From: Gemmatimonadota bacterium
GTDB lineage: Bacteria; Orphanbacterota; Orphanbacteria; Orphanbacterales; Orphanbacteraceae
Assembly (NCBI GenBank): GCA_020061515.1
Contig: JAGUYC010000313.1
Coordinates: forward strand, 1 to 59,002
Direction: 5' to 3'
DNA: 59,002 bases
Made by a program: the position numbers and the translations under genes. The notes beneath the pieces were generated by a model that saw only the letters and a list, made by a program, of their open reading frames with translations, made no database searches and had not been told where the DNA came from. Shown piece by piece: positions 31,846 to 42,247 of this stretch (its first letter is position 1; the number at the start of each line of letters is the position of its first letter).

Positions 31846-34626
31846 ATGTCCACCGACACGATCACCCTCTCGCCCCAGCAGAAGCGGGTCATCGAGCACC
31901 GGGGGAGCCATGTCCAGGTGATTGCCTGCGCGGGCTCGGGGAAGACCGAGTCCGTGTCGCGGCGCGTCGCCGCCCTGGTGAACGAGGGGGTGCCGTCTGA
32001 GTCGATCGTCGCCTTCACCTTCACGGAGCGAGCCGCCGGGGAACTCAAGGAGCGCATCCACCAGAAGGTCGAGGAGGTCAAAGGGACCGACTTCCTCGGC
32101 CGCCTTGGGCCGATGTTCGTCGGGACCATCCACAGCTACTGCTTCCGGCTGCTCCAGACACACGTCCCGAAGTACGGGAACTACGACGTCCTTGACGAGC
32201 ACCGGCATATCGGGCTCCTCTCGCGCGAGTTCAAGCGGCTCGGCATCAGCCGCCTCGGCAGGGGCGAGAAGCACTGGAAGCCGATCGCGGAGTTCGCCTG
32301 GACCGCCGACGTCATCGGGAACGAGCTGATCAAGCCCAGCGACATCGAGGGAACCCCTCTCGGCGAGTGCTACAAAGACTACCTCGCCATGCTCAGCCGC
32401 TACCGGTTCCTGACCTTCAGCCGCATCATCTCGCAGGCGGTCGAAGTGCTCGACAAGAAAGCGGTCTACAAGCGCGTGCACGGCCCGCTCCGCCACCTCA
32501 TCGTCGACGAGTATCAAGATATCAACCCCGCGCAGGAGCGCCTGATCGAACTCCTCTCCGCGAAGCCGGTCGAGCTGTGCGTCGTTGGGGACGACGACCA
32601 ATCGATCTACCAGTGGCGGGGCTCGGACGTCGCCAACATCCTGAGCTTCGCGCGTCGACGCCGCGGTTCGGAGCTGGTCCGCCTGGAGACGAACCGGAGG
32701 AGCAGCCCCGCGATCGTGAAGGCGGCGAACGCCTTCGCCCGGTCGATCCCGGACCGCCTCGAGAAGGCGATGAGGCCGAAGCGCCCGGAGGCCCCCTCCC
32801 AGCTCGTCACCTGGAGCGCCGAGACCCCGGAGGAAGAGGCCGAGCAGATCGCCGAGACGATCGAGCGCCTGCACCAAAACGATTACCGCTACCAGGACAT
32901 CGGCGTCCTCTTTCGTTCCGTCCGCACCTCCGCGCCCGTCCTGATCGAGGCGCTGCAGGAGCGCGGCATCCCCCTCTCGTGCAGCGGCCGCACCGGGCTC
33001 TTCCTGATCCCCGAGATCAACCTCTTTGGGGAGATCCTTGCCTGGTTCGTCGACGAGGAGTGGCAGGACGAACGCTTCGGCCCTGCCCGGCCCGCCGATC
33101 TCGACAACATCGTCGTCGGCCTCAGCCGGAACTTCGGACGGAAGCGCGGCGAGATCCCCGGCCTCCGCACGTTCCTCGAAGATTGGAAGAAGCTCCGCCT
33201 CCGCGGCACGCGCCCGGTCAGCCTCGTCGGCGATTTCTACAAGCTCCTCCACTTCCTCGGCGCCCACACGATCGACATCGACGACCCGGAGGGGGCCGCG
33301 CGCTTCGGCGCCTTCGCCCGCTTCTCCGAGCTTCTCGCCGACTTCGAGCACGTCACGCGCCGCGGCTGCTACGTGGAGGAGCGCGGGAAGCGCGTCTTCC
33401 GGACCGGCCTCGATCGCGGGAAGGAGTACTATCGCCGCCTCTCCAGCTACGTGCGGCACTACGCGCGCGACGCCTACGAGGACTTCGCGGGCGAAGACCA
33501 CCAGGAGATCGACGCGGTCGATATCCTCACGATCCACCAGGCGAAGGGGCTCGAGTGGCCGATCGTCTTCTTGCCGTCGCTCACGAGCCGCCGCTTCCCT
33601 CCCGCTCGCGCGGGGAAGAAACGGGACTGGCTTCTCCCGGAGAGCGTTTTCCCCGAGGAAACGCAGCGTCGATACGAAGGCGGGGACACCGAGGAGCGCC
33701 GCCTCTTCTACGTGGCGATGACCCGCGCCCGCGACGCCCTCTACCTCTCCTACTTCGAGCACATCAAGCAGGAGATGAAGCCCTCGCGTTATCTCAAGGA
33801 GGTCGCGGACCGGAACGGCGGGATCCGCTCCTACTCGAAGCTCCCCCTTCCGCCGAAGCCGGAGAGGCTCCTCGAGCCGGAGCTCCCTCCCCTCGAGGTC
33901 AGCTTCTCGGAGATCGCGCACTTCGAGGAGTGCGGCCACCGTTATCGCCTGGCGTCGAACTTCGGGTTCCAGCAGGAGCTGGCCACTGAGCTGGGCTACG
34001 GGCGCGCGATCCACCACATCCTTCGGAACATCGCGGACGGTGCGCGAAGCACGGGGGAGGCGCCAACCGACCAAGAGATACGGAAGATCATGGACGACGA
34101 GTTCTACCTCCCCTTCGCGCGCCGCCCGGAGTTCGTTCGGATGTCGCGCGCGGCGCGCGGTCTTGTCGACCGGTACCTCTCCAAGTACGCGGACGATCTT
34201 CGCCGCGTCTGGGAGACCGAGCGGCCTTTTCAGCTCCGGCTCCCCGACGGGACCGTCTCCGGCCGCGCGGATGTGATCCTCGACGAAGAGGACGGGCTCC
34301 CCGGGCGTCTCGCGATCGTGGACTACAAAACGGCGACCGACCCGAGGCGGGACGAGCACTACCGAATGCAGATGGCGGTCTATGCCGAGGCGGCGAGGGG
34401 CGAAGGGCTCGATGTCGTCGCGGGGTACGTGCACGAGCTGAAGCACGGCGACCGCCACGCGGTCGACATCCGCCAGGAGACGAACGCCCAGGGTTTGGAG
34501 AAGGTCGCGAGTTCGGTCCGTGCGATCCGGACGGGGCGATTCGAGCCGTGCGTGTCGCAGGAGAAGTGCGCGACGTGCGATTATCGAATGGTCTGCGCGC
34601 ACTGCAAGGCGACGGAACAAGGTTAG
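31846..34626 (+). CDS. UvrD/PcrA-like SF1 helicase fused to a C-terminal Cas4/AddB-type PD-(D/E)xK nuclease with a 4-Cys Fe-S motif
   Basis: SF1 motifs AGSGKTE, TFTERAAGELKERI, VDEYQD, GDDDQSIYQWRG, TNRRS, TIHQAKGLEW and YVAMTRAR. Nuclease domain from ~33890: EECGHRY, GRADVIL...LAIVDYKT, QMAVYA and CVSQEKCATCDYRMVCAHC. The start may alternatively be GTG 31792. Confidence 0.9.
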   Translation: MSTDTITLSPQQKRVIEHRGSHVQVIACAGSGKTESVSRRVAALVNEGVPSESIVAFTFTERAAGELKERIHQKVEEVKGTDFLGRLGPMFVGTIHSYCFRLLQTHVPKYGNYDVLDEHRHIGLLSREFKRLGISRLGRGEKHWKPIAEFAWTADVIGNELIKPSDIEGTPLGECYKDYLAMLSRYRFLTFSRIISQAVEVLDKKAVYKRVHGPLRHLIVDEYQDINPAQERLIELLSAKPVELCVVGDDDQSIYQWRGSDVANILSFARRRRGSELVRLETNRRSSPAIVKAANAFARSIPDRLEKAMRPKRPEAPSQLVTWSAETPEEEAEQIAETIERLHQNDYRYQDIGVLFRSVRTSAPVLIEALQERGIPLSCSGRTGLFLIPEINLFGEILAWFVDEEWQDERFGPARPADLDNIVVGLSRNFGRKRGEIPGLRTFLEDWKKLRLRGTRPVSLVGDFYKLLHFLGAHTIDIDDPEGAARFGAFARFSELLADFEHVTRRGCYVEERGKRVFRTGLDRGKEYYRRLSSYVRHYARDAYEDFAGEDHQEIDAVDILTIHQAKGLEWPIVFLPSLTSRRFPPARAGKKRDWLLPESVFPEETQRRYEGGDTEERRLFYVAMTRARDALYLSYFEHIKQEMKPSRYLKEVADRNGGIRSYSKLPLPPKPERLLEPELPPLEVSFSEIAHFEECGHRYRLASNFGFQQELATELGYGRAIHHILRNIADGARSTGEAPTDQEIRKIMDDEFYLPFARRPEFVRMSRAARGLVDRYLSKYADDLRRVWETERPFQLRLPDGTVSGRADVILDEEDGLPGRLAIVDYKTATDPRRDEHYRMQMAVYAEAARGEGLDVVAGYVHELKHGDRHAVDIRQETNAQGLEKVASSVRAIRTGRFEPCVSQEKCATCDYRMVCAHCKATEQG

Positions 34627-34636
34627 AGGGATCAAC

Positions 34637-41500: not shown

Positions 41501-42247
41501 CATGCCTATGAGCCCGACTTCATCGTGCGGTTGTCGAACGGCACGATGGTTATGCTCGAGATCAAGGGAAAGGCCGGTAGGATCCACGGCGAGGATGAGG
41601 TCAAGGCGAAGAACGCCGCCGCGCGGAAGTGGGTCGCTGCGGTCAATAACCTCGGCAAGTACGGACGCTGGGCGTTTGAGATCTGCGAGGACCCAACAAA
41701 GCTCCGATCGATCCTAGAGAAGCACGCCGGGGTCCCTCAGCTCGTCAAGATCTTCCGCATCGTGCAGCCGACTCGCGAGACTGCGTGGAAGACATGCGTT
41801 CCGCTCGCCACCCTGCAGGCGGCCGCGGGCAAGTTCAGTGAGGAACAGCTCAGCCTCGATCGCTACGACGAGTGGCACGGCAAGTGGATCACGTGGGATG
41901 ACCCGCCGACGTTCGAGGAAGGCATGTTCGTCGCCAAGGTCCACGGGAAGTCGATGGAGCCGCTCATCCCGTCAGGGGCGCACTGCCTCTTCCGCCCGCC
42001 GCGTGCCGGGACGCGCCAGGGGAAGGTCCTCCTCGTGTGGCACTCCGGAATCACCGATCCCCACACGGGCGGCACCTACACGGTGAAGGTCTACGAGAGC
42101 GAAAGACGCGGCGCCGACGAGGGCGAGTGGGAGCACGTCCGCATCACCCTCAAGCCCAAGAATCCTGACTTCCCCCCGATCGTCCTGGAACCGAAGGACG
42201 AGGGCGAGGTCAGGGTGATCGCCGAATTCGTGCAGGTGGTGGGGTAG
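38597..42247 (+). CDS. res: Type III restriction enzyme Res subunit (SF2 helicase + PD-(D/E)xK nuclease) fused to a C-terminal LexA/UmuD-type S24 peptidase domain
   Basis: Helicase motifs [17 protein letters not shown] and [39 protein letters not shown]. Nuclease motif YEPDFIV...MVMLEIKGK. The last 149 aa (41798-42244) align by eye with the LexA C-terminal domain: [13 protein letters not shown] (cleavage-loop-like), GKSMEP (Ser 41951-41953) and YTVKVY (Lys 42086-42088). Confidence 0.85.
   Translation: [1216 protein letters not shown]

Follow-up and report, generated by a model that had tools for sequence, protein, structure and literature searches.

The question raised by this locus is whether four tightly packed genes act as one defence system or belong to several systems that merely lie side by side. 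The genes are found on contig JAGUYC010000313.1 of a Gemmatimonadota bacterium (assembly GCA_020061515.1), of which a stretch of 59,002 nt was analysed, referred to here as the window. They encode a helicase-nuclease (HelNuc), an AbiJ-like protein, a DNA methyltransferase (Mod) and a restriction endonuclease that ends in a LexA-like S24 protease module (Res-S24). Comparison between genomes indicates that HelNuc, Mod and Res-S24 are a conserved three-gene unit and that the AbiJ-like gene is a guest in the slot between HelNuc and Mod. The cassette as a whole is probably a three-gene type III-like restriction-modification (R-M) system with one foreign gene, in which self-cleavage of the S24 module would turn restriction down.

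The evidence that carries this reading is the linkage of the genes at other loci. Loci were sampled through their Res homologues from metagenomes (80 loci), from three individually retrieved loci and from viral/prophage and plasmid collections; the plasmid and viral-contig collections gave S24-less relatives only and were used as negative controls. A HelNuc gene precedes Mod-Res in each of the 13 loci where Res carries the S24 module and enough upstream sequence exists to assess it (L082, L083, L084-L087, L124, L164, L166, L220-L222 and the window); in none of 48 strictly assessable loci does one accompany an S24-less Mod-Res pair. A strict two-by-two table of S24 against HelNuc reads 7/0/0/48, with a Fisher p of 5e-9. 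No HelNuc orthologue was found in 37 further S24-less loci on viral/prophage contigs. The S24-less relatives of Res are ~1040 aa long with 33-53% identity; Mod is present beside them and HelNuc never is. Among assessable loci the S24 module is thus seen only where HelNuc is present, which suggests that HelNuc is an obligate accessory of the S24-bearing Res subclade. The S24-less relatives of lowest identity (29-35%; L148-L162, L174-L206) have the inverted order, Res then Mod, often with an inserted gene between the two.

The arrangement of the three genes is also stable. Their order and orientation are constant, with gaps of a few nt in L083, L221 and L222, and the triad stays while the flanks differ completely between loci, being housekeeping genes in the closest relative of the window, L167. 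Across loci, HelNuc, Mod and Res diverge from their window copies in a correlated way (Spearman 0.92, 0.88 and 0.73), and for 19 more pairs of HelNuc and Res-S24 matches the longest contigs are identical in size. Three HelNuc homologues not obviously on the Res list (L164-L166) all adjoin Mod, with Res-S24 intact in L166, frameshifted in L164 and a remnant in L165. The latter two loci show signs of decay: an apparent frameshift near codon 622 interrupts Res in L164 (20841-22906), and L165 (12772-16152) keeps no more than the first ~115 codons of Res, beside a split Mod. The triad occurs in Eisenbacteria, Geobacter and other Deltaproteobacteria, Lindowbacteria, Planctomycetes, Gemmatimonadota, Elusimicrobia, Actinobacteria and Spirochaetota.

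The AbiJ-like gene does not follow this pattern. L167, whose HelNuc is 90% identical to that of the window at the amino acid level and 87% at the nucleotide level, has the HelNuc stop 25 nt from the Mod ATG and no AbiJ-like gene between them. By blastn, window positions 31816-34617 correspond to L167 8129-10929 (87%), and homology returns at 35578-36180, equivalent to L167 10954-11556 (88%); the segment between is listed as an insertion in Table 1. Its GC content is 0.557, compared with 0.666 for HelNuc and 0.640 for Res, and at third codon positions the AbiJ-like gene has a GC content of 0.71 against 0.90 and 0.87, respectively. The gene is missing from all 125 Res-bearing loci, from the three HelNuc-retrieved loci L164-L166 and, judged by gene tables, from three more S24-bearing loci (L220-L222). 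Sampling from the other side gave the same picture: around 80 genomic loci of AbiJ-like homologues (40-53% identical, from diverse bacteria and archaea, up to 10 kb on each side) no HelNuc or Res homologue was found, and a single locus showed a weak methyltransferase-domain match. The two closest AbiJ-like relatives with usable contigs (60-63% identity) are stand-alone. Taken together, these comparisons indicate that the AbiJ-like gene is a guest inserted in the HelNuc-Mod slot and not a conserved component. It is a separately mobile and probably self-sufficient defence or toxin gene.

An earlier note, made from the DNA letters alone, had put forward a composite of all four genes as a candidate, with two or three juxtaposed systems as the other option. 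The composite stands for HelNuc, Mod and Res-S24, which co-occur and co-diverge, and fails for the AbiJ-like gene, which is absent elsewhere and occupies a 960-bp indel. The same note had implicitly divided the cassette into a helicase/AbiJ pair and a Mod/Res pair, and had named a lack of linkage between these pairs in other organisms as what would refute a single unit. This division was not upheld, as the helicase goes with Mod-Res: it is always linked to them, and the AbiJ-like gene never is. HelNuc and the AbiJ-like gene as a pair of their own were ruled out by the 0/80 AbiJ-like loci with HelNuc and by the 960-bp indel.

The AbiJ-like protein matches the Pfam family AbiJ_NTD4 (PF18863; 1.6e-31, 110.2 bits against a cutoff of 34) and, nearly end to end, the PADLOC candidate PDC-S32 (PDLC04997; 4.3e-100, profile positions 8-281 of 285). 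An AlphaFold2 (AF2) model had a predicted local distance difference test score (pLDDT) of 83. Its Foldseek search returned nothing significant (best E 0.55), although the best and several other weak matches were HEPN proteins (2q00, 1o3u, Csx1, Las1, 1ufb, 4nqf). The canonical Rx4-6H motif was not found in the family alignment, which contains conserved YRNSIKE and GGIRH motifs. The putative HEPN label was the one detail of the earlier note that these comparisons did not confirm. PADLOC treats PDC-S32 as a candidate system of one gene; here it is embedded in another system, and no experimental paper on it was found in the literature.

The open reading frame (ORF) listing returned four co-directional plus-strand ORFs at the positions given by the earlier note, and its account of their short gaps was correct. 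The HelNuc stop at 34626 is separated by 10 nt from the AbiJ-like GTG at 34637, the AbiJ-like stop at 35509 by 78 nt from the Mod ATG at 35588, and the Mod stop at 38590 by 6 nt from the Res ATG at 38597; the GTG and the ATG at 35588 are seen directly in the junction sequence. For the first two genes the adopted starts differ from the longest ORFs (31792 longest and 31846 adopted, to 34626; 34520 longest and 34637 adopted, to 35509), and the other two are read as 35588-38590 and 38597-42247. The HelNuc start is backed by a database protein of 926 aa (P0241) that is 100% identical over its full length, and the AbiJ-like start by family N-termini, which read MxLFS at this codon. In the public annotation the AbiJ-like protein (P0001, 269 aa) begins 21 codons 3' of the GTG; given the conserved MxLFS N-terminus and the PDC-S32 profile, the 290-aa form is favoured and the shorter call is probably too short. 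As each of the four has thousands of homologues in the database, they are real genes rather than chance ORFs. The terminator scan found no terminator-like site at any of the three junctions, and the first on the plus strand 3' of Res lies at 42477-42495. The AbiJ-like gene is probably co-transcribed with the core genes.

Table 1. Features of the cassette and its island in the 59,002-nt window (positions are those of the window; aa, amino acids; dot, no strand)
Feature	Position	Strand	Description
Distal att-like direct repeat, left island edge	24602..24630	.	Copy of the tmRNA 3' end, 27/29 identical to 48045-48073 (repeat search)
HelNuc	31846..34626	+	Core gene 1; UvrD-type superfamily 1 (SF1) helicase followed in the same chain by a PD-(D/E)XK nuclease of the Cas4/AddB type, which has a 4-Cys iron-sulphur (Fe-S) cluster; 926 aa
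HelNuc nuclease / Fe-S domain	33931..34596	+	aa 696-917; PDDEXK_1 aa 703-935, Cas_Cas4 aa 838-936
Insertion relative to closest relative L167	34618..35577	+	960 bp, holds the AbiJ-like gene only (blastn)
AbiJ-like gene	34637..35509	+	290 aa; AbiJ_NTD4 N-terminal domain and all-alpha C-terminal domain; PADLOC PDC-S32
Mod	35588..38590	+	Core gene 2; type III-like beta-class N6A/N4C DNA methyltransferase; 1000 aa
Res-S24	38597..42247	+	Core gene 3; superfamily 2 (SF2) helicase-like ATPase, PD-ExK endonuclease and C-terminal LexA-like S24 module; 1216 aa
Res Walker A	39197..39223	+	KMATGSGKT, aa 201-209
Res PD-ExK motif	41507..41569	+	YEPDF...LEIKG, aa 971-991
S24 module of Res	41795..42244	+	aa ~1067-1216
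Predicted autocleavage site	41825..41830	+	Ala1077-Gly1078 in LQAAAGK; conservation in homologues
Predicted catalytic Ser1119	41951..41953	+	GKSMEP; alignment, LexA BLASTP
Predicted catalytic Lys1164	42086..42088	+	YTVKVY; alignment
Tyrosine recombinase, island integrase	46819..48177	+	NCBIfam XerD/XerC/integron-integrase matches
tmRNA gene (ssrA), integration target	48045..48403	-	ARAGORN; tag peptide ANDNLALAA

The domain assignments of the earlier note (a UvrD helicase with a Cas4 nuclease, an AbiJ-like protein, Mod, and Res with S24) were likewise recovered by Pfam. For HelNuc the matches are UvrD-helicase (3.6e-56), UvrD_C (4.7e-39), PDDEXK_1 (2.1e-24) and Cas_Cas4 (4.2e-07), and its relatives in the PDB are UvrD, PcrA, Rep, AdnB, AddA and RecB. 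Across 114 homologues, conservation reaches 97% or more for three sets of residues: the motor motifs (Walker A AGSGKT at 29-34 and DEYQD at 221-225), the RecB-type nuclease core (D809, D826-Y-K828 and Q842..Y846) and the cysteines C696, C908, C911 and C917. The retention of these four cysteines confirms the Fe-S signature of the Cas4/AddB type. HelNuc nonetheless scores far under all equivalog cutoffs of NCBIfam (addA_Gpos 137.8 vs 707.65, recB 121.2 vs 696.05, addB_Gpos 26 vs 903.7) and is therefore not an orthologue of AddA, AddB or RecB. It shares with AddAB, AdnAB and RecBCD a UvrD-like motor and a RecB-family nuclease, and with AddB and Cas4 the four-cysteine Fe-S site, but is a single 926-aa chain. 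Its architecture, a UvrD SF1 helicase N-terminal to a pfam12705 nuclease and adjoining Mod/Res, makes it a member of the UvrD-Cas4 fusion family.

HelNuc was also compared with named defence systems. Assignment to Gabija, DRT or another PADLOC system was rejected, as the matches reflect the generic UvrD domain; those to the GajB model cover the helicase part only, and no GajA/OLD-type partner was found among the window neighbours scanned. MANTIS/Gao_RL, which is methylation-based and also includes a helicase-nuclease, was rejected too, its gene set being a different one (the AAA+ ATPase MtsA, MtsB, the BREX-related methyltransferase MtsC and the helicase-nuclease MtsD). No Gao_RL model was among the PADLOC matches listed (the best 25 of 64 for HelNuc, the best 25 of 53 for Mod and all 3 for Res).

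Mod is clearly related to type III methyltransferases, with matches to Pfam N6_N4_Mtase (2.5e-29), to the PADLOC model MTase_III (PDLC03632, 525 bits) and, in the PDB, to a type III Mod (6k0w, 2.4e-18) and EcoP15I Mod (4zcf, 3.2e-11). It carries a family-specific C-terminal extension of ~480 aa that is common to the whole family, and in the neighbourhood scans a full-length Mod homologue adjoins every Res relative. Res passes the NCBIfam model NF046055, 'BPTD_3080 family restriction endonuclease' (872.5 bits, cutoff 800), with aa 185-1043 aligned to profile positions 142-969 of 970. Further SF2 motifs (DEGHH and motif VI) are present, and all 121 sequences compared have the same residues at K208, D333/E334 and D974/E988/K990. 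PDB searches found no sequence similarity of Res to solved structures beyond helicase motif VI, and Foldseek gave weak fold matches of the PD-(D/E)XK type (TnsA, R.BspD6I and ACE1). The search scored over 6,500 Res homologues, and the best 120 are all full-length at ~1210 aa, with 57-92% identity, and most carry S24. Res-S24 is thus no one-off but a large family spread across many phyla.

What sets this Res apart is its C-terminal module, which the earlier note had identified as a LexA-type autoprotease domain, and this identification held up in three ways. Pfam Peptidase_S24 (PF00717) matches aa 1074-1210 (5.7e-08, 32.9 bits against a cutoff of 23.3). In an AF2 model of aa 921-1216 (pLDDT 84) the S24 part had as its best Foldseek match the C-terminal domain (CTD) of LexA (8b0v; E 2e-5, probability 1.00, root-mean-square deviation 3.0 A over 107 columns), followed by lambda cI, UmuD' and LexA bound to RecA filaments. 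Finally, BLASTP against E. coli LexA aligned GKSMEP to GMSMKD and so placed S1119 on LexA S119. The equivalence of K1164 to the LexA lysine lies outside this alignment and is based on the shared TVK motif. A search of the PDB with the module sequence alone gave nothing useful, and its likeness to LexA in the PDB comes from the fold comparison alone. The spacing is LexA-like, with 42 residues from the Ala-Gly bond to Ser and 45 from Ser to Lys in Res, compared with 35 and 37 in LexA.

Conservation suggests that the module is an active autoprotease. Among 121 Res sequences both Ser and Lys are present in 94 and neither in 22; Ser alone is found in 4, Lys alone in 0, and one sequence is unscorable owing to a gap at Ser. 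The 94 sequences with both residues have Ala at the P1 position in 93 cases and the exact Ala-Gly pair in 81, whereas this pair occurs in 0 of the 22 that lack both. The window Res has the full set. That Ser, Lys and Ala-Gly are kept jointly and lost jointly across the 121 sequences argues for a working autoprotease. In the dead-protease-like variants (22/121) the Ala-Gly is lost, Ser is replaced by Ala or Asn and Lys mostly by Arg, all together; those listed are P0140-P0145, P0151, P0156, P0161, P0163, P0169, P0188, P0193, P0201, P0207, P0208, P0211, P0213, P0222, P0226, P0232, P0233 and P0236. The S24 fold persists in these variants, as do intact motifs for the ATPase and the nuclease, and HelNuc accompanies them where examined (L082 and L083).

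The slot that holds the AbiJ-like gene is not peculiar to the window. In L220 it is occupied by a PLD nuclease, in Geobacter sp. OR-1 by a 236-aa protein of no known identity, and in L124 and L164 by a Dam-like methyltransferase with a DUF87 ATPase and a ~460-aa module. Among 54 Mod-to-Res loci the two genes abut in 28 and are separated by inserts of more than 400 nt, mostly co-directional ORFs, in 26. The products of these inserts include OLD/AbiL/AriA-like ATPases, GmrSD_N, a Cap15 cyclic-dinucleotide receptor domain, NERD, DUF5615, MNT nucleotidyltransferases, RhuM, trypsin-like peptidases, DUF3226 and PIN-like proteins, among others. One example comes from a 78%-identical Eisenbacteria relative (L081, 1835-2840), in which an MNT gene and a 147-aa partner resembling a HEPN/MNT-type toxin-antitoxin pair lie between Mod and Res; the Mod-Res slot is therefore used within the S24-bearing clade too. 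Both slots often host diverse guest defence genes in this family.

The Dam-like module deserves separate mention. It consists of a MethyltransfD12 protein, a DUF87/HerA-like ATPase and the ~460-aa module, and the copies in L124 (2748-7001) and L164 (12900-17165) share 60-78% identity. A distantly related copy lies directly 3' of Res in L083 (13735-17829; DUF87 29% identity). The module may travel repeatedly with the triad, or it may be a further system that is as yet uncharacterised.

Part of this arrangement has been described before. Hudaiberdiev et al. (2017, 'Phylogenomics of Cas4 family nucleases', PMC5704561) found by computational analysis that UvrD-Cas4 fusions are monophyletic and lie most often beside type III Mod and Res, and proposed an ancillary defence role for them; members also occur with Dcm/Vsr and alone. 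The helicase-nuclease architecture (UvrD SF1 with pfam12705), the type III Mod/Res neighbours and the prediction of defence are the same here. The earlier note knew of no described defence system with this composition; for the UvrD-Cas4 and type III Mod/Res neighbourhood this does not hold. That paper does not mention S24, LexA or a protease, the restriction of the module to the HelNuc clade, catalytic covariation or guest slots (PMC5704561). No follow-up to it was found in the literature, nor any report of a LexA-like S24 module on a restriction enzyme, the 2017 paper being the sole relevant work. As far as could be found, the LexA-like module on Res, its restriction to the HelNuc clade, the covariation of its catalytic elements and the guest slots are new.

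Comparison with other characterised or annotated systems gives a similar mixture of likeness and difference. Type III R-M systems such as EcoP15I and EcoP1I share Mod homology, the order Mod then Res, and a Res composed of an SF2 ATPase and a C-terminal PD-ExK domain, but the window subunits are much larger and are joined by a third gene and a protease module. The BPTD_3080 family (NF046055) shares the Res core, and plasmid and prophage relatives so annotated lie beside a ~1000-aa Mod; however, the 970-position model ends before S24, and the sampled typical members have neither S24 nor HelNuc (0/48). LexA, UmuD and lambda cI share with the module its fold, the GxSM serine motif, the TVK lysine motif and the Ala-Gly bond at LexA-like spacing, whereas in Res the module is fused C-terminally to a 1070-aa restriction enzyme rather than to a DNA-binding or polymerase-accessory domain. 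PrrC is embedded in the EcoprrI type I R-M operon and is, like the AbiJ-like gene, a toxin or defence gene capable of standing alone that lies between the genes of an R-M operon. The window operon is type III-like rather than type I, and its guest is of the AbiJ_NTD4/PDC-S32 kind instead of an anticodon nuclease.

The core has intact catalytic motifs for two nucleases, two motors, one methyltransferase and one protease. In the mechanism proposed for the three-gene system, Mod would methylate host DNA and the Res-Mod complex would make a double-strand break in unmodified DNA. HelNuc would load at the resulting ends and unwind and degrade the DNA, destroying the invader and producing single-stranded DNA (ssDNA). 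The S24 module would be a structural part of uncleaved, active Res, serving either dimerisation as in LexA or the docking of HelNuc. A trigger, RecA-ssDNA or another, would then bring about self-cleavage at Ala1077-Gly1078, so that the module is detached and restriction turned down. The outcome would be a built-in, SOS-coupled restriction alleviation that spares the host chromosome. The AbiJ-like gene landed in the HelNuc-Mod slot, and the cassette as a whole rides on an island integrated at a transfer-messenger RNA (tmRNA) gene. That uncleaved Res is the active form, and cleavage an off switch, is favoured because the 22 members without the dyad keep their ATPase and nuclease residues, a full-length domain and HelNuc. 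The invariance of the helicase and nuclease residues in these members also suggests that non-cleavable Res enzymes are under selection. A more specific wiring, in which HelNuc resects the breaks made by Res, a RecA filament forms on the product and self-cleavage at Ala1077-Gly1078 then switches restriction, most likely off, is possible but put forward only tentatively.

Several points weigh against the three-gene reading. The S24-bearing Res proteins form one clade in the tree, so the co-occurrence of HelNuc and S24 reflects one ancestral event followed by retention rather than repeated independent association, and the Fisher p overstates the support; retention of the triad still carries some weight, since genes in the same slots turn over quickly. 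UvrD-Cas4 proteins found with Dcm/Vsr or alone (PMC5704561) imply that HelNuc can work outside a Mod/Res system. Res shows no similarity to EcoP15I Res (4zcf) in PDB searches by single sequence or profile, its matches to the PADLOC type III endonuclease models are weak, and it falls below the curated type III models (Pfam ResIII 21.7 vs 22.5 bits, NCBIfam PRK15483 17.6 vs 564), and the term type III-like consequently rests on Mod and on architecture. The promoter and terminator scans used a sigma-70 consensus that may not suit this host. A functional coupling of the AbiJ-like guest to its host system may exist by analogy with PrrC and EcoprrI. Finally, RecA dependence, the direction of the switch and contact between HelNuc and S24 are all inferred, and a literature search found no biochemical or genetic study of any member of the system.

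The alternatives differ in how many genes they count as one system. That all four form an obligate composite, with the AbiJ-like protein as an abortive-infection backstop, would suit the tight spacing, the shared strand and the junctions without a terminator-like site, and has a precedent in the embedding of PrrC. This is scarcely tenable given that the AbiJ-like gene is absent from the 125 Res-bearing loci, from L164-L166 and from three more S24-bearing loci, that the closest relative lacks exactly this gene, that 80/80 AbiJ-like homologues do without the partners and that elsewhere the slot is filled by other guests. A looser coupling, in which the R-M complex would hold the AbiJ-like protein latent and release it when a phage inhibits Mod or Res, as in a PrrC-type guard, is improbable rather than untenable: the position within the operon makes co-expression likely, and 26/54 loci with embedded genes suggest that the slot is selectively favoured and not random. 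AbiJ-like/PDC-S32 genes are normally alone, however, and so do not need an R-M partner, and embedding may provide a promoter and co-mobility alone. At the other extreme, HelNuc might be an independent repair or defence enzyme beside an ordinary type III-like R-M pair. The occurrence of its family with Dcm/Vsr and as stand-alone genes (PMC5704561), the generic GajB/DRT helicase similarity seen by PADLOC and the several unrelated defence-like genes of the island fit such a juxtaposition, which is made very unlikely by the 13/13 versus 0/48 co-occurrence, the constant order and orientation, the few-nt gaps, the co-divergence and the persistence of the triad between entirely different flanks.

The function of the S24 module can also be read in other ways. 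UmuD is activated by S24 self-cleavage, and Res might similarly be latent until cleavage triggered by activated RecA or damage removes an autoinhibitory C-terminal domain, giving a damage-triggered and possibly abortive nuclease response together with HelNuc. The conservation of the catalytic site and the LexA/UmuD' fold suit this idea as well as they suit the off switch, and HelNuc would supply the ssDNA signal. It is unlikely, as the 22/121 members that lack the Ala-Gly bond and the dyad yet keep ATPase, nuclease and HelNuc are hard to square with permanent latency. Alternatively, the module may be purely structural, mediating dimerisation or docking without ever being cleaved, its Ser, Lys and Ala-Gly being inherited and weakly constrained. 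The LexA CTD is also a dimerisation domain, and 18% of members lack the dyad and still keep the domain. Even so, ~78% of a multi-phylum clade retains all three elements, and their joint loss (Lys-only 0, Ser-only 4) fits a working catalytic unit, making a purely structural role unlikely.

The cassette lies in a 23.4-kb island (window 24602-48073) integrated at the tmRNA gene, as indicated by an integrase that adjoins ssrA and by the direct repeat on the opposite side, which copies the ssrA 3' end. The 3' end of the integrase gene overlaps that of the tmRNA by ~130 nt, and the GC content of the island is 0.624 compared with 0.652 and 0.667 in the flanks. The other genes of the island do not accompany the triad elsewhere, for example in L167. 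At its left end (24800-26816) a second N6_N4 methyltransferase of 463 aa overlaps an HTH_23 protein of 213 aa, and no cognate nuclease was identified for it. Divergent from the cassette, a minus-strand gene at 27354-31631 encodes a 1425-aa protein with an LmuA/DUF4297-like (Cap4-type nuclease) N-terminus (PADLOC LmuA 8.6e-13) and a central AAA ATPase. This is probably a separate, uncharacterised defence gene; it was ruled out as part of the system since housekeeping genes occupy that place in L167. Directly 3' of Res, behind the terminator-like hairpin at 42477-42495, a Gp49 (HigB/RelE-like) and HTH_3 pair (42547-43363) is likely a toxin-antitoxin module. Outside the island, 16789-24499 encodes a number of large proteins of the secreted type, which end in glycosyl-hydrolase or FlgD-Ig-like domains and are host context unrelated to the cassette.

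The analysis puts a defined, widespread and uncharacterised R-M variant in place of a vague four-gene defence island. Annotation gene by gene would give 'type III RM + PDC-S32', overlooking HelNuc as well as the S24 module. The intergenic slots, which are predicted to be capture hotspots for AbiJ-like, PLD, OLD/AbiL-like, GmrSD and other defence genes, should be useful for discovering defence genes through 'guilt by embedding'. If the proposed function is true, a restriction endonuclease with a working LexA-type autoprotease would be a new coupling of restriction to the DNA-damage response, and a dedicated AddAB-like partner would bear on the old question of which enzyme degrades restricted DNA and what keeps self-damage in check. 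Should the tentative RecA wiring also be true, the family would contain a protease-based, SOS-coupled self/non-self safety circuit, unlike the ClpXP-mediated alleviation of type I systems, and such a circuit would be present in thousands of environmental genomes.

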